From NCBI GenBank assembly GCA_003232725.1, contig QIJH01000218.1, positions 3,429 through 67,428 of the forward strand: DNA of 64,000 nt, in the 5' to 3' direction. Within the stretch, counting starts at the first letter, position 1. The number at the start of each line of letters is the position of its first letter. Shown here one piece after another: positions 4,131-42,477 of this stretch. Source of the DNA: Chromatiaceae bacterium. GTDB lineage: Bacteria; Pseudomonadota; Gammaproteobacteria; SZUA-140. The position numbers and the translations under genes were made by a program. Below the pieces are notes generated by a model. That model made no database searches, was not told where the DNA came from, and worked only from the letters and a program-made list of their open reading frames with translations.

Positions 4131-4555
4131 CGCCTACCCCTATTAGTGATTACCGTTACCACAGCCGCCCGGTGAGCCCGCTGCTGAGGCGAGGGTCTTG
4201 TTGGCATCCTCAAAAAAGTCCTGCCAGCCACTGGCCATCGTATTTCCGATAAATAGCATCCACCGGTAACGCTGCGAGCTGTGGCAACACAACTTGCACA
4301 GACTGGTCCGCTTGCAACAGGCCGCATTCGTTACACTCCAGTTATAGAGATGGGTGTCACCTGAATTACTAACGATAACGCCTCCTCATCAAGACAAAAC
4401 GCACAGCCCATTCTCATGAGTTAAATAAAAACACAGCAAAAACAAACAATTTAATGTATAATTTGTCGCCTTGCTGGAATCATCCCGCAAGTTCGTGCGC
4501 CCTCTTAGACTCATATTGAGGTGCACGACCCTAGAACACTACAGGTATTTTACAG

Positions 4556-6409
4556 ATGTCATCACCCTCTGATAGCTTTTCGCAGCTAGCACTTTCCGCC
4601 CCTATCCTTCGCGCACTGGATGATGTTGGCTACGAGTCACCATCACCCATTCAAGCAGAAGCGATCCCGCATCTACTTGAAGGACACGACATTATAGGAC
4701 AGGCGCAGACCGGTACCGGTAAGACCGCTGCATTTGCACTACCGCTACTGAACAACATCGATCTAACACAAAAAACCCCGCAACTACTGGTACTGGCCCC
4801 AACACGCGAACTCGCGATCCAGGTGGCCGAGGCATTTCAGAGCTATGCACGTCACCTAAAGGGGTTTCATGTGCTGCCAATCTACGGCGGCCAAAGCATG
4901 GACACCCAGCTACGCCAGCTAAAACGCGGGGTACATGTCGTCGTGGGTACTCCTGGTCGCGTGATGGACCACTTGCGTCGTAAAACGATGTCACTCGCTG
5001 GCCTGAAATCACTCGTACTGGATGAAGCCGATGAAATGCTGAAGATGGGCTTTATCGATGACGTTGAATGGATCTTGGAACAGACACCAGAGACGCGTCA
5101 AATCGCGCTATTCTCAGCAACGATGCCAGATGTGATCCGTAAGGTTGCGAATCGTTACCTGAAAAACCCAAAGACGGTCAAGATCAAATCTGAATCGACC
5201 ACTGTTGATACCATCAATCAAAAATACTGGCAGGTCAGCGGCCTGCATAAGCTCGATGCGCTGACCCGCATCCTGGAAGTCGAAGAGCTCGATGCCGCAA
5301 TCATCTTTGTGCGCACCAAAAATGCCACCGCTGAACTGGCGCAGAAACTCGAAGCACGCGGCTATTCCTGCGCGGCACTGAGTGGTGATATCACTCAGGT
5401 GCTGCGCGAACGCACCGTTAATCAACTGAAAAAAGGGGTGATCGATATCATCGTTGCGACCGACGTTGCGGCGCGTGGCCTCGATGTGCCTCGCATCAGC
5501 CACGTGATCAACTACGACATCCCGTATGACACAGAAGCCTATGTTCACCGTATCGGTCGTACTGGTCGCGCCGGCCGCAAAGGCACCGCAATTTTATTTG
5601 TCGCGCCACGCGAGACCCGTATGCTGCGTGCGATTGAGCGCGCTACCAATAAAAAGATCGAGCGCATGCAACTGCCTTCGATTGAAGCAGTTAGCAACAA
5701 GCGTGTTACCGAATTTAAGCAGCAGATCCTCGATACCATCAAGTCTGAAGACCTAACATTTTTTAACGAAGTGTTGATGCAGATCGAAACAGAGCAGAAC
5801 ATCAGTCCAAATGATGTTGCCGCCGCACTCACCTATCTATTGCAGAAAGAACGGCCATTGATGCCTAAGGCGCAGGCGATGCCAAAAGACCGTAAAGCGC
5901 GTGACCGTACCGCGGACAACCGAGACCGCCCTCGCGAAAAACGTCCAGCACCTGGTTCACTCGGCAAGGCACGCCGTTTGAAAAAACATCCTGAAGTTGA
6001 AATGGCACGTTACCGTATTGAAGTTGGCAAGCATCATGAAGCTTCGCCAGGCGACATCGTTGGCGCCATTGCAAATGAAGCAGAGATCGACAGCCAGTAC
6101 ATTGGCGATATCAAACTCTATGATGACTTCAGCACTGTCGATCTACCCGCTGACATGCCAGCCGATGTCTTCCAGCTACTGAAAAAAGCCCGCGTACGCC
6201 AACAGGCACTAGCAATCTCAATCACTAAAGATGGCGCATTTGGCAATAAGGGCGGCGCAAGAAGTGGCACTGATAAAAAGCGTGAATTTTCCGACAAAAA
6301 AGGCGGTGATCGTCAAAAGAAATCGGGCAAAGAAAAATTCGTGAATAAAAAGGCCGCCAGTCAGGCTAAAAAACCAAAGAGCAAAGAACAAATCTCGCTC
6401 TCTAAATAA
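4556..6409 (+). CDS. deaD: ATP-dependent DEAD-box RNA helicase DeaD/CsdA
   Basis: Q-motif, motif I AQTGTGKT, DEAD (LVLDEADEM), SAT, HRIGRTGRAG. C-terminal DbpA-like RNA-binding domain and basic K/R/G-rich tail. 617 aa. Confidence 0.93.
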   Translation: MSSPSDSFSQLALSAPILRALDDVGYESPSPIQAEAIPHLLEGHDIIGQAQTGTGKTAAFALPLLNNIDLTQKTPQLLVLAPTRELAIQVAEAFQSYARHLKGFHVLPIYGGQSMDTQLRQLKRGVHVVVGTPGRVMDHLRRKTMSLAGLKSLVLDEADEMLKMGFIDDVEWILEQTPETRQIALFSATMPDVIRKVANRYLKNPKTVKIKSESTTVDTINQKYWQVSGLHKLDALTRILEVEELDAAIIFVRTKNATAELAQKLEARGYSCAALSGDITQVLRERTVNQLKKGVIDIIVATDVAARGLDVPRISHVINYDIPYDTEAYVHRIGRTGRAGRKGTAILFVAPRETRMLRAIERATNKKIERMQLPSIEAVSNKRVTEFKQQILDTIKSEDLTFFNEVLMQIETEQNISPNDVAAALTYLLQKERPLMPKAQAMPKDRKARDRTADNRDRPREKRPAPGSLGKARRLKKHPEVEMARYRIEVGKHHEASPGDIVGAIANEAEIDSQYIGDIKLYDDFSTVDLPADMPADVFQLLKKARVRQQALAISITKDGAFGNKGGARSGTDKKREFSDKKGGDRQKKSGKEKFVNKKAASQAKKPKSKEQISLSK

Positions 6410-6485
6410 AGTAGGCATTCACGCCTGGAATAAAGTCGTTGTTCCGGTATCCTAAAAAACCGGGACGGCGATCACTTTAACCAAC

Positions 6486-7730
6486 CTACCCTCGCAATAT
6501 CTTTTCTATCGCGTCAACATCTGCCTGTGCTGCCTCCAGCACACGCAATGTCATCTTTGGGCCAAGCCTGCCAAGCGAAAATTTAGTAAATGAAGGAACC
6601 GCATCGATTGCCGGATATTCCGCCATCTTCGGTGTATCGATAAAACTATAGAGCTGTGCCAATACAACCACATCGCAATAGTCAGGCTTAGGACCACCAT
6701 CGCGATACCAATCATGTGAACCACGCACCACATCGATCACATCCAGATCAAAATCCCAACGCCTCAACACTTGCACGCCCACCTCACAACTCAACTCTTC
6801 AATCACCTGACTCAACATTGCGGCATCTTCAACAAGCTCTGGGTATTTTGCCGCATAGTTAATCACAGGCAGCGCGCCAATGTTATATACTAACCCAGCT
6901 AACATCGCGCGATCTTCATCAAGCCCTCGCCCATGGCGTGAAATTACCGCACACAATGCAGCCAAGTGAGTACTACGCTGCCACGCTTTACGCATAAACG
7001 CTTGAAGCAATGGCGATTCGCTTTCGAATAACTGTTGTAATGAACAACCAATCACGAGATCCCGTGTCACCTGCAATCCCATTCGAGAGACTGCCATCTG
7101 GCAAGTGGTAATCGCCGATTTACCACGATACATAGGACTATTTGCCACCTTCAACAGACGTCCTGCCAACGGCGGGTCAGCCATCACGATCCGTGCCACT
7201 TCAGAAACATCAGACCCTTTATCCTTGACCGCAACCTGCACTTGCAGTGCGATATCAGGCAGACTGGGGATTTTAAGTTTACTGGCTTTTGAATCACGTT
7301 CAATATCGGCCATCAAATGCTCAATCAACGCCGCCTTATCGAGCGAAATATTGCCATCTATCTTATCTGGCGGTGGTGCATCACCCAGCGCCTTTCTCAC
7401 CTCATCATCACTCAAACGAAAAACAACCACTCGACTGCTAGCGCGAATCGTCCATTGGCAAGGCTTAGTGAAACTCAGCGGCAATTTAGCCTTATCAGTG
7501 TTTGCGCTCACCACCTCATCATCACGACCAGGCGCCACCATAGAGACATCGCCTGACACCAGAAAATAAGTCCAGGGCTCATTCGAACCGTGATGCGCGA
7601 TGGTCTCACCTGCTAGCAGCGTCTCAAAATAACTATCCCGAGAGAGCTGCAGTAACGCCACTGCATCAAGTTTATCCAGCGGGGAAAAGATGCCCATTAT
7701 GGCTGGATTGACCAGCTTATCCGTCTTCAT
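6486..7730 (-). CDS. cyclic-nucleotide-binding domain + HDOD domain signalling protein
   Basis: N-terminal cNMP-binding-like beta-barrel (ETIAHHGSNEPWTYFLVSGDVSMV). C-terminal HDOD-like helical domain (LPDIALQVQVAVKDKGSDVSEVARIVMADPPLAGRLLKVANSPMY...). Confidence 0.75.
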   Translation of the reverse strand: MKTDKLVNPAIMGIFSPLDKLDAVALLQLSRDSYFETLLAGETIAHHGSNEPWTYFLVSGDVSMVAPGRDDEVVSANTDKAKLPLSFTKPCQWTIRASSRVVVFRLSDDEVRKALGDAPPPDKIDGNISLDKAALIEHLMADIERDSKASKLKIPSLPDIALQVQVAVKDKGSDVSEVARIVMADPPLAGRLLKVANSPMYRGKSAITTCQMAVSRMGLQVTRDLVIGCSLQQLFESESPLLQAFMRKAWQRSTHLAALCAVISRHGRGLDEDRAMLAGLVYNIGALPVINYAAKYPELVEDAAMLSQVIEELSCEVGVQVLRRWDFDLDVIDVVRGSHDWYRDGGPKPDYCDVVVLAQLYSFIDTPKMAEYPAIDAVPSFTKFSLGRLGPKMTLRVLEAAQADVDAIEKILRG

Positions 7731-32216: not shown

Positions 32217-33173
32217 TTGCAGTCAAGACGAAAAATGCGTGACCAAAATGAAATGGAAATTGATGATTCCGTCTATAAAACACTCCTGGAATCGACAAAT
32301 GCAATTCCATGGAAGATCGACTGGCAGAGCAAAAAGTTTACTTATATCGGCCCACAAATTGAATCCTTACTCGGGTGGTCAACATCAAGCTGGCACAGCG
32401 TTAACGACTGGGTTGAACGCATGCATCCTGACAACAGAGAATCTGTGGTTAATTTTTGCATTGCTCAATCACAGGCAGGCAACGACCATGAAGTGGATTA
32501 CCGCGCCCGAACAAAGGATGGCGGCTACATCTGGATTCGAGATGTCGTTCATGTCATTCGTAAAAATAACGAAGTTGAATCAATCATCGGCTTCATGTTT
32601 GATATTAGCGAACGAAAGAAAATTGAAGAGAAACTCATTCACCTACAAAAAGAACTCGAAGAACTCTCTTATAAAGACGCCCTCACCAACATCGCAAACC
32701 GCCGCATGTTCGATTCCATTCTCAAACGAGAATGGGCCAGCGCACAACGAAACCAGCAACCGATCGCACTCATCCTGCTAGATATCGACTTCTTTAAAGA
32801 GTACAACGATCACTACGGGCACATCATGGGTGACGACTGCCTGAAACAGGTCGCCAGGATATTAAGTAACGTCGCAACCAGGCCGCGAGACTTTGTGGCG
32901 CGCTTTGGCGGCGGGGAATTTGTGCTCGTTCTCTCTGATACGGATGAGGCATCAGCAATCAAAATCGCTGAAGAATGCCGCCGCGAAATCACTCAACATG
33001 CCATTCCTCACGCACAGTCAACTATCGGCCAAATACTCACCATTAGTGCAGGTGCGGGTGCCATCACACCATTAAAAAACGCTTGTCAAAAATATTTCAT
33101 CAGGCAAATCGACACCCTGCTCTATAAAGCGAAACTTCGCGGCAGGAATTGCGTTATCCACAAAGCATCATGA
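32217..33173 (+). CDS. PAS-domain protein with degenerate GGDEF domain (RFGGGEF)
   Basis: PAS fold (LLESTNAIPWKIDWQSKKFTYIGPQIESLLGW...DGGYIWIRDVV) then GGDEF domain (LTNIANRRMFDSIL...LILLDIDFFKEYNDHYGHIMGDDCLKQVA...ARFGGGEFVLVL). The signature is GGGEF rather than GG[DE]EF. Confidence 0.8.
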   Translation: MQSRRKMRDQNEMEIDDSVYKTLLESTNAIPWKIDWQSKKFTYIGPQIESLLGWSTSSWHSVNDWVERMHPDNRESVVNFCIAQSQAGNDHEVDYRARTKDGGYIWIRDVVHVIRKNNEVESIIGFMFDISERKKIEEKLIHLQKELEELSYKDALTNIANRRMFDSILKREWASAQRNQQPIALILLDIDFFKEYNDHYGHIMGDDCLKQVARILSNVATRPRDFVARFGGGEFVLVLSDTDEASAIKIAEECRREITQHAIPHAQSTIGQILTISAGAGAITPLKNACQKYFIRQIDTLLYKAKLRGRNCVIHKAS

Positions 33174-33496: not shown

Positions 33497-34510
33497 ATGA
33501 AATACCCAATTGCTGGCATCGTTTTACTGGCATCTACGCCAGCACTCGCGTTAGACGCCATCCCCGACAGCTTTCCAACACCAATGGACAACCCAATCAG
33601 CAACGCCAAAGTAGAACTCGGCAAGCAGCTCTTTTTTGATCCGCGCCTTTCGATTGATGGCACCGTATCCTGCAACTCATGCCACAACGTGATGGCGAGC
33701 GGCACCGATAGCCGCCCTACTTCTGTTGGTGTTAACGGCCAACGCGGCGGACGTAATGCACCGACCGTGTGGAATGCTGCATTCCTTAGCACCCAGTTCT
33801 GGGATGGCCGCGCCGCGACACTGGAAGAGCAGGCAAAAGGACCACCTTTAAACCCAATCGAGATGGGCATGCCAAATGCACAGGCGGTGGTTGATCGGCT
33901 CGAAAGCATTCCCGGTTACAAGGCACAATTTAATGCCATCTTCGGCGCGGTCTCTTACGACAACATGGCAAAAGCAATTGCCAGCTATGAGCGCACACTG
34001 ATTACCATTAACAGCCCGTTTGATCGTCACATGAAAGGTGATAAAACAGCAATGTCTGACAAAGCGATCAAAGGCATGAAGCGTTTCAATACCATTGGCT
34101 GCTCTGGCTGTCACAACGGCGTTAACTTTGCGGGGCCTGCACTTGCCACCGGTACTGGTTTCTTCCAGAAATTTCCACTGTTTAACAACCCGCTTATCGC
34201 TAAATACAACTTGGCAAAAGACAAAGGGCGCTATGAAGTAACCCAGGACAACGCCGACATCAACACCTGGCGTGTGCCATCACTACGTAACATCGCCACC
34301 ACCGCACCTTACTTTCACAACGGCGCAGTTAAAACCCTTGAGGAAGCGGTACATGTAATGGCAACTAGCCAGCTTGATAAAAAATTAAGTGATGCTGAAA
34401 TCAGCGAAATCGTTGCTTTCCTGGAATCCCTCACGGGTGAGTTTCCAGCCCAGACTATGCCTAGACTTCCTGGCATTACGGGTAGCAGCCTCGTAGGTTC
34501 AATCAAGTAA
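33497..34510 (+). CDS. ccp: di-haem cytochrome c peroxidase (CcpA/MauG family)
   Basis: Signal peptide; two CxxCH motifs (CNSCH, CSGCH); ...FFDPRLS...GRNAPTVWNAAF...FWDGRA...TAPYFHNGAV conserved CCP residues. Confidence 0.9.
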   Translation: MKYPIAGIVLLASTPALALDAIPDSFPTPMDNPISNAKVELGKQLFFDPRLSIDGTVSCNSCHNVMASGTDSRPTSVGVNGQRGGRNAPTVWNAAFLSTQFWDGRAATLEEQAKGPPLNPIEMGMPNAQAVVDRLESIPGYKAQFNAIFGAVSYDNMAKAIASYERTLITINSPFDRHMKGDKTAMSDKAIKGMKRFNTIGCSGCHNGVNFAGPALATGTGFFQKFPLFNNPLIAKYNLAKDKGRYEVTQDNADINTWRVPSLRNIATTAPYFHNGAVKTLEEAVHVMATSQLDKKLSDAEISEIVAFLESLTGEFPAQTMPRLPGITGSSLVGSIK

Positions 34511-35056: not shown

Positions 35057-35797
35057 GTGAATAAAAACCAGACAACACAGCAATCAGCCACGGATGAAAT
35101 CAATGATTTTATCGAACCTTGCTTTCTCAATAGCAATCGTTGGATAAACACACCAGTCAATAACAACATCGCAAAAATAGCACATTACCTGTCACATAAA
35201 ATTTCCAAAATACCACTGGATTTGACAAGCCATGCGCAACGGATTTCTCTTTACCGCCACCAAGATGATGCTGAAAGTACATATGCAGCACTATTAGATC
35301 TTTTCCTTGTACTTGGCAACAAAGGCCTGCCATTACGCAAGCGCCTACTACGGCAAGCAGCATCTGTCATCAGTGCAGAAAACTATGGTTTTTTATCAAG
35401 CACGCTGCCAACGGCATTGGTCATCACATGCAATACACCACTACCACACCTTTCCGCACTAAGTCTTGGTAGAACCAGAGAAAAAGAGATCATACGGAAA
35501 ACCGATGACGAGCAGTCAAAAAAAAAGGAAGCACCACTATTGATCGTGCGCGACCTACTTAATTCAGGACAAATATCACAGGCACAGTCAATTCTGGAAC
35601 TCGCACTGCTAGCCGCACCGGATAACAATGATCTTAGCAACGAACTACTGCAGATCTATCATCATACTCACGATAGAAGCGGCTGCATTCAAATGCTTAA
35701 AAAATTGTCATCAGCTGCATTAGCAGGCCGAGAGAAATGGGCAGAACTGATTATCACACTCGACCAGGACAGCACGGAGCGCTCACTCAGTGCATAA
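35057..35797 (+). CDS. hypothetical protein, helical/TPR-like C-terminus (first gene of candidate GTPase operon)
   Basis: 246 aa ORF with GTG start and no clear SD. C-terminal ...AQSILELALLAAPDNNDLSNELLQIYHHT... resembles a TPR/FimV-C-like helical hairpin. No family assigned. Confidence 0.4.
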   Translation: MNKNQTTQQSATDEINDFIEPCFLNSNRWINTPVNNNIAKIAHYLSHKISKIPLDLTSHAQRISLYRHQDDAESTYAALLDLFLVLGNKGLPLRKRLLRQAASVISAENYGFLSSTLPTALVITCNTPLPHLSALSLGRTREKEIIRKTDDEQSKKKEAPLLIVRDLLNSGQISQAQSILELALLAAPDNNDLSNELLQIYHHTHDRSGCIQMLKKLSSAALAGREKWAELIITLDQDSTERSLSA

Positions 35798-36680
35798 ACA
35801 GAAAACAACCAACCCTATTAGAGTGACCACACTCGGTCTCGATGAGCGCTCACAAGAGGTGCTGAGAATGGCTTTTTCAAGCGTCGCAAAGGGCGAGTGC
35901 GTTTTATCCGATACTGCCTCAGCAGATGTTGGTCTCTGTAATATGGATAGCCACAACGCAAATACATTATGGAGTAAAAATAAAACACACTATCCCGAGC
36001 GCCCTATGGTTGTGATTTCAGTCAAAAATCCACAACTTGAAAATTGCATGTATGTAGCAAAACCGATTAACATCACCATGCTTGTCGATGCAATCAAGGA
36101 TGCCTTTAGTAGCAGCGCCATGCAGCATTCAGTAGCTCATGCAGTCAATGGAATGCATGCCAGTACACAGGAGCTTCATCCGCTACCCCAGCAACCAGAG
36201 AAACACATTCAAGAGACATCCATGGGTTCTCCTCTAACACCTGAGGAACAATGGAATGATGAAGGCCACTCGAGTATCAACTACTACTCTCCAGCAGATT
36301 ACCTGCAAGAAGAGCTACAAAACTCTGCCACACAGGCAAGTGAGAGAAATCTATCCGCACAATACTCAGTCAAATTGAACGACACCTGGCTACACATCAC
36401 TATAGATCCAATTCATAATAAAGTGGTCTCTGAAATCAGCGATCAAATACTTGAGTCTCTGTGTACAACACCACGCTACTGTATTGAAACCAAATCAAAA
36501 TTTCTTAGCAAAAACAGATCCCACTTTGATGTCTACCGAGGAGACAAACCCTATCATGAATGCACCATCGCTCAATTCATTTGGAAGGTAGCGCTCTGGA
36601 CATCTGCTGGAAGACTATCAAAAGAGATGAGCCCATCAACACTGGCCGAATTTAACACGCCTGACACGCTCAAAAAATGA
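35790..36680 (+). CDS. receiver (REC)-like domain protein with unknown C-terminal domain
   Basis: N-terminal ~110 aa have CheY-like topology: IRVTTLGLDERSQEVLRMAF...ADVGLCNMDSHNA (Asp at the phospho-acceptor position)...PMVVISVKNP...YVAKPINITMLVDAIKDAF (KP motif). The acidic pocket is partly degenerate. Overlaps the previous gene by 8 nt. Confidence 0.45.
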   Translation: MHKQKTTNPIRVTTLGLDERSQEVLRMAFSSVAKGECVLSDTASADVGLCNMDSHNANTLWSKNKTHYPERPMVVISVKNPQLENCMYVAKPINITMLVDAIKDAFSSSAMQHSVAHAVNGMHASTQELHPLPQQPEKHIQETSMGSPLTPEEQWNDEGHSSINYYSPADYLQEELQNSATQASERNLSAQYSVKLNDTWLHITIDPIHNKVVSEISDQILESLCTTPRYCIETKSKFLSKNRSHFDVYRGDKPYHECTIAQFIWKVALWTSAGRLSKEMSPSTLAEFNTPDTLKK

Positions 36681-36942
36681 TATCAGGATAGCAGCGCTGC
36701 TCTCCGAACAGCCAGCTGCACCAGCCCTTATTTCCAAGGTACTTGGGATACCAATATCTCAAGTCTTTTCTTTTTACGCGGCAGCACATGCACTCAATTT
36801 AGCCATGCCAGTCGTGAATGTGACAAAAAAACCAGCGTTTAATATTCAACAAAAAAGCAAACATCATTCATTATTTAGCAAAATACTCGAAAAATTTGCT
36901 GGTTAACACTAAACCACCTACCCATAAAGACACCCTTCGATC

Positions 36943-37491
36943 ATGCCTGGAAACAATCATAAAATAATATTCACTGGCCCTGTGGGCGCAGGAAAGACAG
37001 CAGCAATTAGCGCCATTAGTGATATTGCCGTTTTAAAAACGGATGAAAATGCACAGGACATGACCAAGAAACGCAAGCAGACAACAACCGTAGCGCTAGA
37101 TTATGGGCTATTAAAACTAGGGGAAGGGGAAGGGGAACGCATTCACCTCTATGGCACACCCGGCCAGGAACGTTTCGACTTCATGTGGGACATATTAACC
37201 AATGGTGGCCTTGGCCTAATCCTACTACTTGACAACTCGCGCTCAACCCCTTTTAAAGACATGAGTTTTTTTCTTAACGCATTTCGTGATTTTATTTGCG
37301 ATAACAAAATGGTCATTGGGGTTACGCACATGGAATACAACGAAACATCAAAAATAGAGTCGTATCATCAACAGTTACATAAACATGGCATCAAAGCACC
37401 CATACTAGAAATTGATGCGCGAGAAAAAAACGATGTCGAAACGCTAGTCAAAACACTTCTTTACTCACTTGACCCATGGCTGGGGCAGTAA
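36943..37491 (+). CDS. small Ras-like GTPase, MglA-like
   Basis: 182 aa. P-loop KIIFTGPVGAGKTAAIS; switch I Thr (TTTVALDYG); switch II HLYGTPGQERF, like MglA's TVPGQ variant of DxxGQ. Size and organisation like MglA/CvnD-type GTPases. No clear canonical NKxD. Confidence 0.7.
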   Translation: MPGNNHKIIFTGPVGAGKTAAISAISDIAVLKTDENAQDMTKKRKQTTTVALDYGLLKLGEGEGERIHLYGTPGQERFDFMWDILTNGGLGLILLLDNSRSTPFKDMSFFLNAFRDFICDNKMVIGVTHMEYNETSKIESYHQQLHKHGIKAPILEIDAREKNDVETLVKTLLYSLDPWLGQ

Positions 37492-38177
37492 TGAGTCAAT
37501 ACGAACTGATCGATACAAGGTTTGTCTTACCATCACCCGCAGGCACATATTACGCCATATCAAACCATCAAGAAGAGCGCTCCAGAGGGCTGCTACTTGC
37601 TTTAATGACACAAGCAAACAGTCAAAGAATATCCACAGAGACGCTTTCGATTTGGCTAGACGATGACAACATTGAAACGTCATTGGCACTGCTTCACAAG
37701 ATTCAACAATTAGGCTGGCTTAGACCAGATGATGAACAATCATCGGCCCCGACCGGGGCACTTGAAGAAATAATACCACCGCTACTGGCAACATTATGCA
37801 ACACAGAAAAAACACTACTTGCCGATCACCAGGGCTTTACACTCGCCGCTCACGGATTTACTCACGAAGCAGCCGAAGAGCTATCGGCTCTCAGTGCAGA
37901 CCTCATCGCTCTGAGATTACGGCACGGAAGTTTGCTCACTAAAAACCTTAAACTTAATACGCAAGCCATCGGCCTTATTGATGCCGCAGGCAATAGCCAG
38001 CTAGGGTTCTGGCCACTGCATATTGGCAAGCACTGCTTTACATTGGTAATGAGTGGCATACCGCAATTTAATCAAACCAGTTTTACCAATTTAATTTGGC
38101 TACTAACGACTCGTTATGGATCAAATGACAATGCTGCCAATTTGTCAATTCACGAAATATTTTACACAGATAAATAG
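37491..38177 (+). CDS. hypothetical protein, possible tandem roadblock/longin-like partner (translationally coupled to GTPase)
   Basis: ATG overlaps the GTPase stop (TAATG). 228 aa. Second half (LLATLCNTEKTLLADHQGFTLAAHGF...AIGLIDAAGNSQLGFWPLHIGKHCFTLVMSG) has a roadblock-like alternation. Confidence 0.45.
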   Translation: MSQYELIDTRFVLPSPAGTYYAISNHQEERSRGLLLALMTQANSQRISTETLSIWLDDDNIETSLALLHKIQQLGWLRPDDEQSSAPTGALEEIIPPLLATLCNTEKTLLADHQGFTLAAHGFTHEAAEELSALSADLIALRLRHGSLLTKNLKLNTQAIGLIDAAGNSQLGFWPLHIGKHCFTLVMSGIPQFNQTSFTNLIWLLTTRYGSNDNAANLSIHEIFYTDK

Positions 38178-38239
38178 ACTGAGCGACAACTTATTCAATA
38201 TCATCTACCACAAAAATTTTGAAACAAGGAGTCAATATA

Positions 38240-38602
38240 ATGCGAGCTGACATTTTAAATTCTATTCTATCTGAGTTGAACGGCACTTCAGCTGAAATAG
38301 AAGCATCAGCCATCTTATCGACAGATGGCCTCATGATGGCATCAATGCTGCCTGCTGGAATGGATGAAGATCGAGTGGGTGCAATGGCTGCGGCCATGCT
38401 CTCGCTCGGCGATAGAACATCTGAAGAACTCGCACGCGGTGGACTTGAACAAGTACTGATAAAAGGAGAAAAAGGCTACGTTTTGATGACGCATGCGGGT
38501 GATGAATCAGTACTATCAGTACTTGCCAAACCAAGCGCGCGCCTTGGGCTAATATTTTTAGATGTAAAACGTGCTGCAGAATCAATTGAGAAGCTGGTTT
38601 AA
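38240..38602 (+). CDS. Roadblock/LC7 domain protein (MglB-like)
   Basis: MRADILNSILSELNGTSAEIEASAILSTDGLMMASMLPAGMDEDRVGAMAAAMLSLGDRTSEELARGGLEQVLIKGEKGYVLMTHAGDESVLSVLAKPSARLGLIFLDVKRAAE is a textbook Roadblock/LC7 signature. AAGGAG RBS 8 nt upstream. Confidence 0.78.
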   Translation: MRADILNSILSELNGTSAEIEASAILSTDGLMMASMLPAGMDEDRVGAMAAAMLSLGDRTSEELARGGLEQVLIKGEKGYVLMTHAGDESVLSVLAKPSARLGLIFLDVKRAAESIEKLV

Positions 38603-38626: not shown

Positions 38627-39097
38627 ATGAAAGACATGATGCCTGACAATATTTCCGGCGAGTACCAAGAACATCTATTCAGCTACCATGATGGTACTCA
38701 GCGAAAAGCCCTTTTCACCAACATCGAAACACAACTACCAGAAGGCCGCCTGATTGTTTCTCGCACAAATACCGATGGCATCATTATTGATGTAAACCAG
38801 CCATTTATTGAAATGTCCGCTTATCATAAAGATGAGTTAATCGGCCAACCTCATTATATTCTTCGCCATCCAGATATGCCTGCCGCCGCATTTAGCGATC
38901 TCTGGAAAATGGTTCAACAGCGAAATAAATGGCATGGATACGTCAAAAATCTTCGCAAAGACGGTGGCTTTTATTGGGTATATGCGACCGTTATCGCAAA
39001 CATTCGGAAGGGTGACATCACTGGCTTTACATCTGTTCGCCGCCGTGCCTCGCGCGCTAAAATTAATGAAGCCGAAATTCTTTATCAAACTTTATAA
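38627..39097 (+). CDS. stand-alone Aer-type (FAD-binding) PAS domain protein
   Basis: RLIVSRTNTDGIIIDVNQPFIEMSAYHKDELIGQPHYILRHPDMPAAAFSDLWKMVQQRNKWHGYVKNLRKDGGFYWVYATVIANIRKGDITGFTSVRRRAS closely parallels the Aer N-terminal PAS (GQPHN.VRHPDMP.AAF.D.W...G.PW.G.VKNR.K.G..YWV.A.V.P). No transmembrane or output domain. Confidence 0.8.
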   Translation: MKDMMPDNISGEYQEHLFSYHDGTQRKALFTNIETQLPEGRLIVSRTNTDGIIIDVNQPFIEMSAYHKDELIGQPHYILRHPDMPAAAFSDLWKMVQQRNKWHGYVKNLRKDGGFYWVYATVIANIRKGDITGFTSVRRRASRAKINEAEILYQTL

Positions 39098-39111: not shown

Positions 39112-39858
39112 ATGACCCACAACTTCACCGTCAGTCCAGACTTTAATCCAGGCCATATATCTGGTTGGTACATCTTCAATACATGGCTTCAACGCACCAT
39201 CAATGAAGAGCTCCACCTGGAACTCTACAATAGCGCTAGCGAACAACGAAAAGCGATCGCTGATGACCGGGTAGATTTAATTTATGCCAACCCTTATGAC
39301 GCGACAGCACTGGTAAGAGACAAGGGGTTTTTCCCTGTTGCACGTGCTGACAACAAAACAGACGAGGCCATCATCGCTGTCAATCATGAAAGCCCAATCC
39401 TCAATGTTGAACAACTCACAGATGGCACCAGAATTTCCAGCACCGATGACCCGGACGTACGCATGATGTGCATGATCATGCTTGAGCCTGCAGGGTTAAA
39501 TAAAAGTAACACCTCTACCACACAACGTGATGCTTACATTTTGATTGCCAAAGATCTTTTAAAAAACGACGCCGACGTTGGTTTCTTTCTCGAAGAGACA
39601 TACAACGAACTCTCAGACATGACAAAAAAACAATTAAGACCTATTGTGCACAGCCAAATTCATGTCATCCACCATCTACTGCTTGTCGGTCCTAAATTAG
39701 CACACAAAAAAGATGACATACAATCATCACTCCTTTCAATGGCTGATGACTCAAAAGGAGTCGGCGTATTAAAAAACCTGAACTTCGAACGCTGGGTAGC
39801 GGTTGAGCAGGAAGAAGCCGAATTCATGATTGACTTAATGGACACATTAGCCGAATAA
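39112..39858 (+). CDS. PhnD/SsuA-like (phosphonate-binding family) periplasmic-binding-fold protein lacking a signal peptide
   Basis: 248 aa. DLIYANPYDATALVRDKGFFPVARAD...AIIAV pattern of Phosphonate-bd/PBP type 2. N-terminus MTHNFTVSPDFNPGH... is not a signal peptide. Confidence 0.6.
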   Translation: MTHNFTVSPDFNPGHISGWYIFNTWLQRTINEELHLELYNSASEQRKAIADDRVDLIYANPYDATALVRDKGFFPVARADNKTDEAIIAVNHESPILNVEQLTDGTRISSTDDPDVRMMCMIMLEPAGLNKSNTSTTQRDAYILIAKDLLKNDADVGFFLEETYNELSDMTKKQLRPIVHSQIHVIHHLLLVGPKLAHKKDDIQSSLLSMADDSKGVGVLKNLNFERWVAVEQEEAEFMIDLMDTLAE

Positions 39859-39880: not shown

Positions 39881-41008
39881 CTATTGCTTAGATGCCTCTT
39901 TTTTAGAGTCGCGCAACCGCTGAAGTTTTTCAAGTATACGTTCCGCCCGACCAATATGCTCTAGCGCCTGCTCGTTGTCGGGTGCCAGTGCTAGCGCATT
40001 TTCCCAGGTACCTATTGCCTTCATATACTGTCCCTCTCCGTAATACTCGACACCCAGGGCAATACTCTCTTTCACCTGTTTATCCAGAAGAAAACTCAAC
40101 TGCTGTGCAAGCTCAATCTCACTCTCATTCAAATTACCTAACAACTTCAACCTGACAACATAATCTAATGCCCTAGTCAGCTCATTATTATTGACAGCCT
40201 TAAGCAAAGACACATTGAGAATTTTTTGCATCTTCCGTCTACTTTCAATCACAATTTGTTGCTGTCTGCGCTCATTTTCCACCTGGGACTGTAACTTTTC
40301 ATTCTCGATTTCTTGCTGTTGTTTCGCCAATAGCAGCTGACTCTCCACGACTGTTTGCTTAAGCTCGCCTATCATCGGCACTGGATTAAGCTGCCAGGCA
40401 AGGCTAAGCAACTCTTCCGCATGGAGGAAATCATCCTGTTCCAAGGCTGCTCGTCCATGTTCAGCAAGCAATTTAGCAACTTTCTTTGATTTATCTTTAT
40501 CTCTTTTCCAGCGGCCCTCTTTTAGCCAACTACCTGGGGTAATCAACGCCAACTCTTCCTGAACACTAATCGTATTACTCAACCACTCCGCTTGCATCAC
40601 TAACAAGTCCAATTCCAGTGCCGCAACCCGAATATTCTGTTTAAAATGCAGCGCCTGAAATGCTGAGTTAATCTTTTCACTATCTGGAATATTATTTAAT
40701 GCGGTTTGGTAGTATCGCTTGGCACGATACCACTCTCCTGCCTTCTCAAGCGCCCTGCCCTCCTCCAGTGTCTGCTGCTCATATATAACTGCCTGCTTAT
40801 CAATACCAGCGATTAACGCATTCACACTTGAATAGTCAGCGTGCGACTCAGGCACATGAGAAAGCACCACTTGCGCTTGTGCATACCGATCCCCCTCGAC
40901 AAGAGAGTCCACCTTTTCTAATACATTAGACGAACGCGCATCCATATACGCACAACCCTGTACAAATATCACCAACAAAATGAGAAAGGCTAATTTCACA
41001 TTTTTCAT
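39881..41008 (-). CDS. TPR-repeat lipoprotein
   Basis: Signal peptide with lipobox (LILLVIFVQGC). Multiple TPR-like repeats (AQ..LS...Y..AL, GEWYRAKRYYQTALNN, GQYMKAIGTWENALALAPDN). 4-nt overlap with the upstream cyclase gene. Confidence 0.65.
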   Translation of the reverse strand: MKNVKLAFLILLVIFVQGCAYMDARSSNVLEKVDSLVEGDRYAQAQVVLSHVPESHADYSSVNALIAGIDKQAVIYEQQTLEEGRALEKAGEWYRAKRYYQTALNNIPDSEKINSAFQALHFKQNIRVAALELDLLVMQAEWLSNTISVQEELALITPGSWLKEGRWKRDKDKSKKVAKLLAEHGRAALEQDDFLHAEELLSLAWQLNPVPMIGELKQTVVESQLLLAKQQQEIENEKLQSQVENERRQQQIVIESRRKMQKILNVSLLKAVNNNELTRALDYVVRLKLLGNLNESEIELAQQLSFLLDKQVKESIALGVEYYGEGQYMKAIGTWENALALAPDNEQALEHIGRAERILEKLQRLRDSKKEASKQ

Positions 41009-42477
41009 GTCGATACGGATACGTCGCCAGTATTCACAACCGTCGATATTGCATCATCGATCATCGCCTGCTGTTTTTCATCAACACCGCTCACATGGTA
41101 AGTCACCAGCGCTTCTTTTTTTCCTTTTAGTGAAATTTTCTTAAAGCGAGTACTAACGATACCCTGAGATTGCAGTGTAACATTCAGTTCATCACTAATT
41201 AGAATTTCGCCAGCATCCGCCGCAGAGGCAAGGCGTGATGCAGTATTAACCGCATCACCAACGACCGTATAGTCCATTCGCTCGGCAGCGCCCATATTAC
41301 CAGCCAGCATCATGCCACTATTAATACCAATTCTAAAACGAACTTGCGTCAAATTATCATTCGCCCTCTGGCGGTTAACTATTTTAACTAGCTTTTGAAT
41401 CGTAATCGCACATGCAGCCGCATGAAAGCTATGCTTGGCATCATCCTCCGGCACACCAAAGACAAGCATCGCACAATCGCCTATGTATTTATCAATATGC
41501 CCACCATAGCAATGTGCTGCCTGCGCAATAATACTAAAGTACTCATTCAGAAGACTATTCACCTGCTCCGGATGTAGCTCTTCCGAAAGCCGCGTAAAAC
41601 CAACGATATCTGCAAACAAAACACTCGCCTCAACATGATGCCCTCCCAACTTCACCTGGTTCAGGTTAGACAATACCGCCTTAGCTACTTTCGGTGAAAC
41701 GTAACGTGAAAATGTCTGCTCCACTTGCTCTTTACGTAACAGCCCTTCCGTCATTTCATTCATCGACTGCATCAGTGAACCCAACTCATCTTTGCGCTGA
41801 TCATTAAGGCGAACATGATAATCACCAGCCGAAATTGCACGGCCAGCATTAATCAATTGATGTATAGGGCGAGTTAAACGCTTACCCAATATAAAAGATG
41901 CTATAAAACCCAGAATCACTAACAACAATGTCGCGCCACCTACCGTGCGAATGGTCTCTTGCTGTGCCAACGTTCTTAAGCGTTGATCAAAAGTAATGAG
42001 CACATAACCTGTCGTCACATCCTTAAAAAACACCGGCTTGAAAAATGAAACCATATCAAGCGGCTCAGGAGCAACGCTATTTTCCTGCCATTCCAGTTTA
42101 ATTACACGCCCTAAGGCAGTGGCAATACGGTGGTCGTCCGGCACTGCACCCTTTTTCACCACCAGCTCTTTGTTCTCATTGTAAAGAGCTGCGCCAAGAA
42201 TCCCAGCTTCACCTGCAAGACTGTTCACCACAATCTCAAGATTAAGGTGATCATTGGCTAATAAGGGTTCACGGGAAAAGCCGGCCATCAACCTTAAAAC
42301 CGTATTTCCCGACTCACTCACCTGCTGCTCAAGAATATTACTTTGGTTGTGGACAATGAACAGCCCCAACAAACTCATCCCGCAACTAATCAATAAAGTA
42401 AAGACTAATGAGAGTTTATAGGCAATAGGGAAGTATGCCGGCAAAAATGCTGTCAGATTTTGGCGTAACTTTTTCAT
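41005..42477 (-). CDS. membrane sensor adenylate/guanylate cyclase (2TM periplasmic sensor - HAMP - class III cyclase)
   Basis: Two TM segments flanking a ~150 aa periplasmic region, HAMP (ILGKRLTRPIHQLINAGRAISAGDYHVRL), CHD cyclase domain (VLFADIVGFTRLSEELHPEQVNSLLNEYF...IGDCAMLVFGVP...RIGINSGMMLAGNMGAAERMDYTVVGDAVNTASRL). Confidence 0.85.
   Translation of the reverse strand: MKKLRQNLTAFLPAYFPIAYKLSLVFTLLISCGMSLLGLFIVHNQSNILEQQVSESGNTVLRLMAGFSREPLLANDHLNLEIVVNSLAGEAGILGAALYNENKELVVKKGAVPDDHRIATALGRVIKLEWQENSVAPEPLDMVSFFKPVFFKDVTTGYVLITFDQRLRTLAQQETIRTVGGATLLLVILGFIASFILGKRLTRPIHQLINAGRAISAGDYHVRLNDQRKDELGSLMQSMNEMTEGLLRKEQVEQTFSRYVSPKVAKAVLSNLNQVKLGGHHVEASVLFADIVGFTRLSEELHPEQVNSLLNEYFSIIAQAAHCYGGHIDKYIGDCAMLVFGVPEDDAKHSFHAAACAITIQKLVKIVNRQRANDNLTQVRFRIGINSGMMLAGNMGAAERMDYTVVGDAVNTASRLASAADAGEILISDELNVTLQSQGIVSTRFKKISLKGKKEALVTYHVSGVDEKQQAMIDDAISTVVNTGDVSVST

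Follow-up and report, generated by a model that had tools for sequence, protein, structure and literature searches.

The open reading frame (ORF) at 35790..36680 on the + strand of a 64,000-nucleotide (nt) stretch of Chromatiaceae bacterium DNA (contig QIJH01000218.1, assembly GCA_003232725.1; the window) was found to be the frameshifted 5' part of a gene for a 377-amino-acid (aa) protein. This protein belongs to the "conserved protein of unknown function" family of Group 3 MglA systems, which was already described in 2015. The ORF encodes 296 aa and begins at a GTG that overlaps with the stop codon of the gene before it (35057..35797), and its translation holds the motifs TTLGLDERS, LCNMDSH and VAKP exactly as an initial annotation of the sequence had quoted them. 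We propose that the family protein is a phosphorylation-independent direct partner, a regulator or scaffold, of the small GTPase encoded next to it, and we put the probability of this reading at roughly 55%. The independence from phosphorylation is proposed because of an Asn at the acceptor position, the loss of the Mg-binding pair, the missing helix alpha4, the lack of a kinase gene and the adjacency of GTPase and Roadblock genes. The initial annotation had suggested a phosphorylation-independent adaptor, as RomR is for MglA. A receiver-like domain acting without phosphorylation beside an MglA-type GTPase is supported by our analysis, and more strongly than was argued there. The substituted pocket and the position beside the GTPase both held up, while the likeness to RomR is one of role only and the adaptor role is something we infer.

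The protein was noted computationally in Group 3 MglA systems by Wuichet and Sogaard-Andersen (2015, Genome Biol Evol; PMC4316618). The available text of that survey gives it an N-terminus similar to receiver domains, a variable linker, a winged-helix C-terminus and no Pfam match, and places Group 3 MglA proteins, with a deviant G4 motif and "DAR" at G5, in beta- and gamma-proteobacteria together with one or two MglB homologues. The window protein family has this architecture and no Pfam model, and the window gene adjoins a Group 3 MglA gene and two Roadblock genes, one of them weak. Compared with the description in that text, the architecture, gene position and taxa are the same and nothing essential differs, and the C-terminal region that the initial annotation had called novel is already covered by it. 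Relative to the same text, our analysis adds the Asn acceptor of the window clade, the acidic residues moved to the DD+1 and D+2 positions, the loss of alpha4, the conserved amphipathic tail, the frameshift of the window copy, the conserved TPR-like first gene of the cassette and, in this lineage, Aer-type PAS and PhnD-like genes. A scan of a full-length orthologue against NCBIfam gave no match. The family, for which neither a Pfam nor an NCBIfam model exists, is large (about 2000 clusters at 50% identity). Neisseria, Xanthomonas, Stenotrophomonas and the bee symbiont Snodgrassella have Group 3 MglA systems, and in Snodgrassella a study concerned with mglB has linked the mgl locus to gut colonisation (PMC11112851). 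The window locus itself is ordinary, carrying a frameshifted member of a family noted in 2015.

The window copy is interrupted by a 17-nt deletion

A search of a large protein collection identified the orthologues P0002-P0004, which are 377 aa long and 75-81% identical to the window protein. In the protein alignment the window protein departs from these orthologues after "...EMSPST". Alignment of the DNA with the syntenic orthologue in locus L001 (alignment A4), together with the translations, demonstrated a 17-nt deletion on the + strand between 36637 and 36638. The deletion takes out "SIQLK" and changes the frame, so that a strand with an invariant leucine (Leu288) is lost, and its site lies outside any homopolymer run. 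The 80 residues missing from the product can be read in frame +1, where they start at about 36640 and end with a stop at 36906. This stretch (36640..36906, + strand) includes an HWPNLTRL motif, a winged helix-turn-helix and a basic amphipathic C-terminal helix (SLFSKILEKF), and its translation is 92% identical to P0002. Putting five codons back restored a 377-aa protein, and the close relatives in L005-L007 were uninterrupted over residues 1-377. The "180-aa C-terminal domain" of the initial annotation is an artefact of this truncation.

Because the out-of-frame part is still 92% identical to P0002, the lesion appears from the sequence to be either very recent or an assembly artefact. Exact look-ups found no independent copy of the deletion; just two database entries of 296 aa were recovered, and as these probably come from one assembly they provide no independent confirmation and do not separate a biological deletion from an assembly error. 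A programmed +1 frameshift was ruled out, as the alignment with the orthologue shows a plain 17-nt deletion and the shifted product would still be without the invariant Leu288 strand. The deletion splits the winged-helix part from the rest of the protein, and if the sequence is correct the window copy is inactive. We give even odds to the explanation that the window gene is a pseudogene or a contig assembly error, in either case a broken copy without a function of its own. The non-homopolymer deletion, the loss of the Leu288 strand and the continuity of the relatives argue for it, and the copy in the Neisseria gonorrhoeae cassette has decayed too. On the other side, the six other cassette genes of the window are intact, and the well-preserved out-of-frame part points to a very recent event or to the assembly.

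The N-terminal domain is predicted to be a receiver fold with a dismantled active site

The initial annotation had described a CheY-like N-terminus and had named the lack of a significant receiver-domain hidden Markov model match as grounds for abandoning it. At the level of the single sequence no such match was found, since a Pfam scan of the window protein returned zero matches even at E<=1, and among 25 relatives the receiver model PF00072 matched one, at E=0.15. The family profile, however, recovered the homology. A profile of 25 members matched solved receiver domains, the best being 8svz_A (E=2.1e-5) with dozens more after it. When the family N-terminus was aligned by HHalign to six canonical receivers (CheY, Spo0F, PhoB, NtrC, NarL and OmpR, with sequences entered by hand), the match had a probability of 97.6% and E=2.7e-12 over 100 columns. 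In an AlphaFold2 model of P0002, residues 10-118 (35817..36143 on the + strand of the window) were modelled with a predicted local distance difference test (pLDDT) score above 90. Foldseek comparison of the model with the PDB gave receiver domains as all of the top matches (E=5e-5, target TM-score about 0.6), so that the predicted fold of this domain is the flavodoxin-like (beta-alpha)5 fold.

The alignment register was the same in three hmmsearch alignments, the HHalign alignment and an hmmalign census, which placed CheY D57 at family position 51 for 27 of the 32 sequences aligned and at position 53 for none. In this register the family motif "ADxxIIDMD" aligns with the receiver motif "PDLVLLDxxMP". 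The Asp of LCNMDSH, which had been taken for the phospho-acceptor, is D53 and corresponds to CheY N59 (the D+2 position); the acceptor position is occupied by N51 in the window protein and in its clade. The replacement of the DD pair was borne out, with G16 and L17 in place of the Mg2+-binding residues D12 and D13 and an Asp (D18) at the position of CheY F14. S77 corresponds to CheY T87, Y88 to Y106 and K91-P92, the VAKP motif that had been recognised as the KP motif, to K109-P110. Thus, among the five catalytic positions, D12, D13 and D57 are replaced (G16, L17, N51), while the Ser/Thr (S77) and the Lys (K91) are kept.

Residue use at these positions was counted in 133 cluster representatives of the family. 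The position of CheY D12 was G in 112 of the 133 and that of D13 held hydrophobic residues only, while the F14 position was D or E in 96. At the acceptor position 112 representatives had D and 20 had N, the residue found in the window clade, and the D+2 position was D in all but one (132/133). S or T was found at the end of beta4 in 115 representatives, and the end of beta5 had K in 129 and P in all 133. By this count the pocket appears strongly conserved yet chemically unlike a phospho-accepting one. Both the model of P0002 and the HHalign alignment show helix alpha2 as a single turn and helix alpha4 as absent, because just eight residues join beta4 to beta5. Taken with the predicted fold, these substitutions describe a probable receiver fold whose active site has been dismantled. 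The PDB titles among the Foldseek matches name CheY mutants at F14, N59 and E89. The Bourret laboratory reportedly varied two pocket-lining positions of CheY, and the acidic residues of the family occupy these two; the F14- and N59-equivalent positions presumably line the active site.

This pattern differs from that of the pseudo-receivers of FrzS, CikA (PsR) and KaiA (N-terminal domain). Those domains have other substitutions, whereas the window family has a near-invariant Ser/Thr, Lys-Pro and D+2 Asp and has deleted alpha4, and the C-terminal module fused to its receiver is unrelated to those three proteins.

Conservation in the family is highest in the C-terminal module

The receiver-like domain is followed by a variable linker (residues 119-160; 36144..36269, + strand) that is predicted to be disordered (pLDDT 31-36 in the P0002 model) and differs in length and composition across the family. 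The C-terminal module, about 215 aa long, is more conserved than any other part of the protein. It was modelled confidently over residues 165-350 and consists, in order, of an alpha/beta subdomain ending in an LWKxALWTSxGR helix, a strand, an invariant WPNLTRL and a three-helix winged helix. The alpha/beta subdomain (residues about 161-283; 36270..36637, + strand) and the winged helix were both modelled at a pLDDT of about 90, and W265, G274 and R275 are invariant or nearly so in the family. A terminal helix sits after about 20 poorly modelled residues. Its pattern, phi-phi-x-x-phi-phi-x-x-phi, was found in 121 of the 133 representatives, with a mean net charge of +2.7 and a hydrophobic moment of 0.67 as compared to 0.53 in shuffled tails, and the helix may be an amphipathic anchor to the membrane or to a partner. 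The helix at the recognition position of the winged helix reads VFSFYSAAxALGL, which is hydrophobic and does not have the basic or polar residues that are usual in helices contacting DNA (alignments A3 and A9).

No significant relative of the module was detected among the sequences of solved structures, and Pfam matches to it were limited to stray hits to HTH_20, TrmB and DUF742. The module profile was run against 1.84 billion cluster representatives and matched 1967 at E<=1e-3 and 766 at E<=1e-30. Most of these proteins were 380-440 aa long, and some of about 230-260 aa had no receiver. Assignment of the alpha/beta subdomain to Roadblock/LC7 was rejected at the sequence level, as HHalign against nine Roadblock proteins plus the product of gene 4 of the cassette gave noise (E=0.45-0.59). 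Ten unusually long relatives showed no extra Pfam domains save the P-loop of a fused GTPase in P0163. One of the short homologues, P0030 (228 aa; L025 5001..5687), is the C-terminal module alone. No GTPase or Roadblock gene is near it; its flanks hold a gene with a weak SIR2_2 (PF13289) match and glycogen-metabolism genes, with NifH-like and nitrogenase-component-like genes upstream.

The gene is part of a conserved cassette with a small GTPase

Seven tightly packed + strand genes make up the cassette, and the target comes second among them. Immediately downstream, with a gap of 36 nt after frame repair, is the third gene (36943..37491), which encodes a small GTPase of the MglA family, Group 3, with ATP_bind_1 and Ras matches. 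Its translation contains the P-loop GPVGAGKT, the motif GTPGQ, a deviant G4 ("GVTHME") and "DAR" at G5 (IDAREKND), and it is 54% identical to the N. gonorrhoeae homologue. The fifth gene (38219..38602) encodes a Roadblock/LC7, MglB-like protein (Robl_LC7, E=2.3e-17) that is 53% identical to its Neisseria homologue. Between them the fourth gene (37476..38177) encodes 233 aa with a weak Roadblock/LC7 signature (Robl_LC7, E=0.013; HHalign against Roadblock, E=0.0018 and a probability of 15%). Its position is conserved in all cassettes, and its product is probably a second MglB-like partner.

The same cassette surrounds orthologues of 377-450 aa in L001-L004, L026 and L027 despite different flanking genes. 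Its core order is a 225-247 aa protein, the target family protein, the ATP_bind_1/Ras GTPase, a 169-233 aa protein and Robl_LC7. The gene order of the window cassette was seen in the syntenic loci L001 and L002 and also around relatives that are just 27-29% identical and have unrelated flanks (L003, L004 and L026), and L027 has the five-gene core alone. In all six related cassettes the family gene lies directly upstream of the GTPase gene with short gaps. In addition P0163, a cluster representative of 563 aa, is an in-frame fusion of the target family protein with the GTPase. The relatives recovered came from metagenome-assembled genomes (MAGs) of Gammaproteobacteria and from Neisseria only, and a locus search made with a closer alignment returned just seven MAG loci.

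The six related cassettes were found to contain no histidine kinase gene. As the initial annotation had stated, no cognate kinase was detected in the window either; HisKA and HATPase_c gave no match in the cassette genes or in 20 further large window ORFs, a scan that covered only part of the ORFs under about 300 aa.

A possible direct partnership with the adjacent GTPase

The link to the GTPase is counted in favour of the proposed role because the family gene is directly upstream of the GTPase gene in six cassettes and because of the P0163 fusion. From the fold, the substitutions and the gene context we infer GTPase binding, a role as guanine nucleotide exchange factor (GEF) or scaffold, membrane anchoring and independence from phosphorylation. 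In the proposed mechanism the C-terminal module would bind the GTPase encoded immediately downstream and might act as an exchange factor or scaffold, like CvnC/MfpC, or might be an effector for its GTP form. Tethering of the complex to the membrane or to another partner would fall to the terminal helix, and the pseudo-receiver may offer a surface for docking or regulation to the Roadblock pair or to sensory proteins such as the Aer-type PAS and PhnD-like proteins of the cassette. A pseudo-receiver joined to a possible exchange-factor or anchor module would permit concrete experiments on GTPase switching in proteobacteria without RomR and RomX, and the extra Aer-type PAS gene suggests a sensory input that can be tested.

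The exchange-factor component draws on the actinobacterial conservons (Group 2), in which the gene beside the GTPase encodes a DUF742 protein, CvnC/MfpC. MfpC has been identified as the GEF of the Group 2 MglA protein MfpB (PMC11343762). Like the window protein, CvnC/MfpC is encoded beside an MglA-family GTPase with a deviant G4 and "DAR" at G5 and beside a Roadblock protein, and it likewise has a winged helix with a conserved G-R motif before it and a terminal helix after it. DUF742 proteins differ in being about 120 aa long and without a receiver domain or an alpha/beta subdomain, and conservons include the histidine-kinase-like CvnA, which the window cassette is without. Ten actinobacterial loci supplied the sequences for a DUF742 alignment, to which the C-terminal module was compared by HHalign. 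Against the ten proteins the probabilities were 31-42% (E=2.7e-4 to 5.2e-4), with E=0.36 for a reversed-sequence control, and at a relaxed threshold the alignment was collinear over the G-R motif, the winged helix and the last helix. We consider it unlikely that the module is the beta/gamma-proteobacterial counterpart of CvnC/MfpC, with Groups 2 and 3 being one ancient "bacterial G-protein" module. Were it so, the alpha/beta subdomain plus winged helix would be a GTPase-regulator architecture reminiscent of the eukaryotic NPRL2 of GATOR1, the Group 3 pseudo-receiver would have replaced the histidine-kinase input, and in this lineage the Aer-type PAS protein would feed redox state directly into a membrane small-GTPase switch.

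Several points weigh against a direct, phosphorylation-independent partnership. The similarity to DUF742 is suggestive and stays below proof of homology, and the Pfam DUF742 model matched 1 of 25 family members, at E=0.074. In the alignment the C-terminal helix is paired with the last DUF742 helix, which is not known to bind membranes. The locus of the C-terminal-only homologue P0030 is without a GTPase, and the P0163 fusion could be a gene-calling or sequencing artefact. As for the pocket, 84% of the representatives keep the acceptor Asp along with the Ser/Thr and Lys-Pro, and the acidic D18 and D53 at pocket-lining positions might rebuild a metal site; for these reasons members with D51 may possibly be phosphorylated by an unlinked kinase or by acetyl phosphate. 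A literature search found no experimental study of any family member. Finally, a winged helix also fits DNA binding, as proposed in the available text of the 2015 survey (PMC4316618).

An alternative that uses the same gene context is that the protein is an effector or polar landmark that binds the GTPase in its GTP form only and is not an exchange factor. The pseudo-receiver would then be the surface that binds the GTPase or an adaptor, and the C-terminal module a localisation device. RomR offers a precedent. With RomX, in Myxococcus xanthus and Bdellovibrio, this receiver-domain protein works with an MglA-family GTPase and Roadblock proteins (MglB/MglC), and a 2026 study, in its available text, describes RomRX as an effector of MglA-GTP with no GEF activity (PMC13408092). 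RomR, however, shares only the receiver fold with the window family. Its C-terminus consists of Pro-rich and Glu-rich regions, its gene is away from mglA and it belongs to Group 1 systems; because the C-terminal module of the target, an alpha/beta subdomain plus winged helix, is different, the target is not a RomR homologue. No protein of RomX size was present among the seven cassette genes, although no sequence search for RomX was made. Conservation in the family peaks in the C-terminal module and not in the receiver, and the weak collinear similarity to the DUF742 exchange factors points the opposite way. A role as effector or landmark alone is accordingly doubtful in our view.

Less probable again is a genuine atypical response-regulator transcription factor, in which an unlinked kinase or small phosphodonor would act on D51 or D53 and the winged helix would bind DNA, as in the transcription control by Group 3 MglA systems that the available text of the 2015 survey proposes (PMC4316618). 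A receiver-like domain joined to a winged helix is a response-regulator architecture, and an acceptor Asp in 112 of 133 representatives with an almost invariant Ser/Thr, Lys and Pro and an invariant D53 suggests that the pocket still does something; against this, both Mg-coordinating residues have been exchanged, for Gly and for a hydrophobic residue, in essentially every member, the window clade and 15% of representatives have Asn at the acceptor position, the output-face helix alpha4 is absent, neither the six related cassettes nor the pseudogenised Neisseria copy has a kinase, the hydrophobic helix at the recognition position would be poorly suited to DNA, and the conserved basic amphipathic tail fits an anchor to a membrane or protein better than one to the nucleoid. 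We retain the direct partner of the GTPase as the preferred reading.

Other genes of the cassette and its surroundings

The first gene of the cassette (35057..35797, + strand) encodes a 246-aa TPR-like protein with a weak TPR_19 match (E=8.5e-4). A gene for 225-247 aa occupies this position in L001-L004, L026 and L027, and N. gonorrhoeae L013 has a homologue. This conserved first gene, present even in Neisseria, is unlisted among the Group 3 components in the available text of the 2015 survey (PMC4316618).

The sixth gene (38627..39097, + strand), an accessory member, encodes a stand-alone PAS protein of 156 aa with PAS_3 and PAS matches. It matched 8dik_A (E=3.6e-30), the FAD-binding PAS domain of Aer, the aerotaxis receptor, and, as its PAS is of the Aer type, is likely an FAD-binding redox sensor. 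Here an Aer-type PAS is found in a small-GTPase operon and is not fused to any chemoreceptor. The PAS gene is present in L001-L004 and L026 and absent from L013 and L027. The last gene (39112..39858, + strand) encodes a PhnD-like protein of 248 aa (Phosphonate-bd, E=1.8e-33). In L001-L004 it is conserved 3' of the PAS gene, and several distant lineages keep it at the end of the cassette. Its product is without an N-terminal extension, because the ORF starts within the domain, with profile position 1 at residue 5, and would be a cytoplasmic protein with the substrate-binding-protein fold in a GTPase operon.

In N. gonorrhoeae L013, cassette genes 1-5 are pseudogenised. Within 4400..7600 of this locus (NZ_CP119140.1) the receiver-winged-helix gene is split in two ORFs and the GTPase gene is frameshifted, and tblastn recovered the homologue of gene 4 in two pieces whose frames differ. 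PLSDB files this record, a chromosome of 2.17 Mb, as a plasmid. The Ralstonia megaplasmid locus L012 has a related GTPase and a Roadblock protein and no homologue of the target protein.

Rfam, promoter and terminator scans around the operon gave nothing relevant. The neighbourhood of the cassette, in which second-messenger signalling genes abound, shows synteny with L001 and L002. Upstream of the cassette lie a PAS-GGDEF gene (32217..33173) and the gene of a cytochrome c peroxidase (33497..34510), and on the minus strand at 39881..42477 the genes of a TPR protein (375 aa) and of a HAMP-adenylate/guanylate cyclase converge on the cassette end. Elsewhere in the window the minus strand encodes a 414-aa HDOD-domain protein (6486..7730), and an HDOD/EAL protein is also encoded near the cassette of L027.

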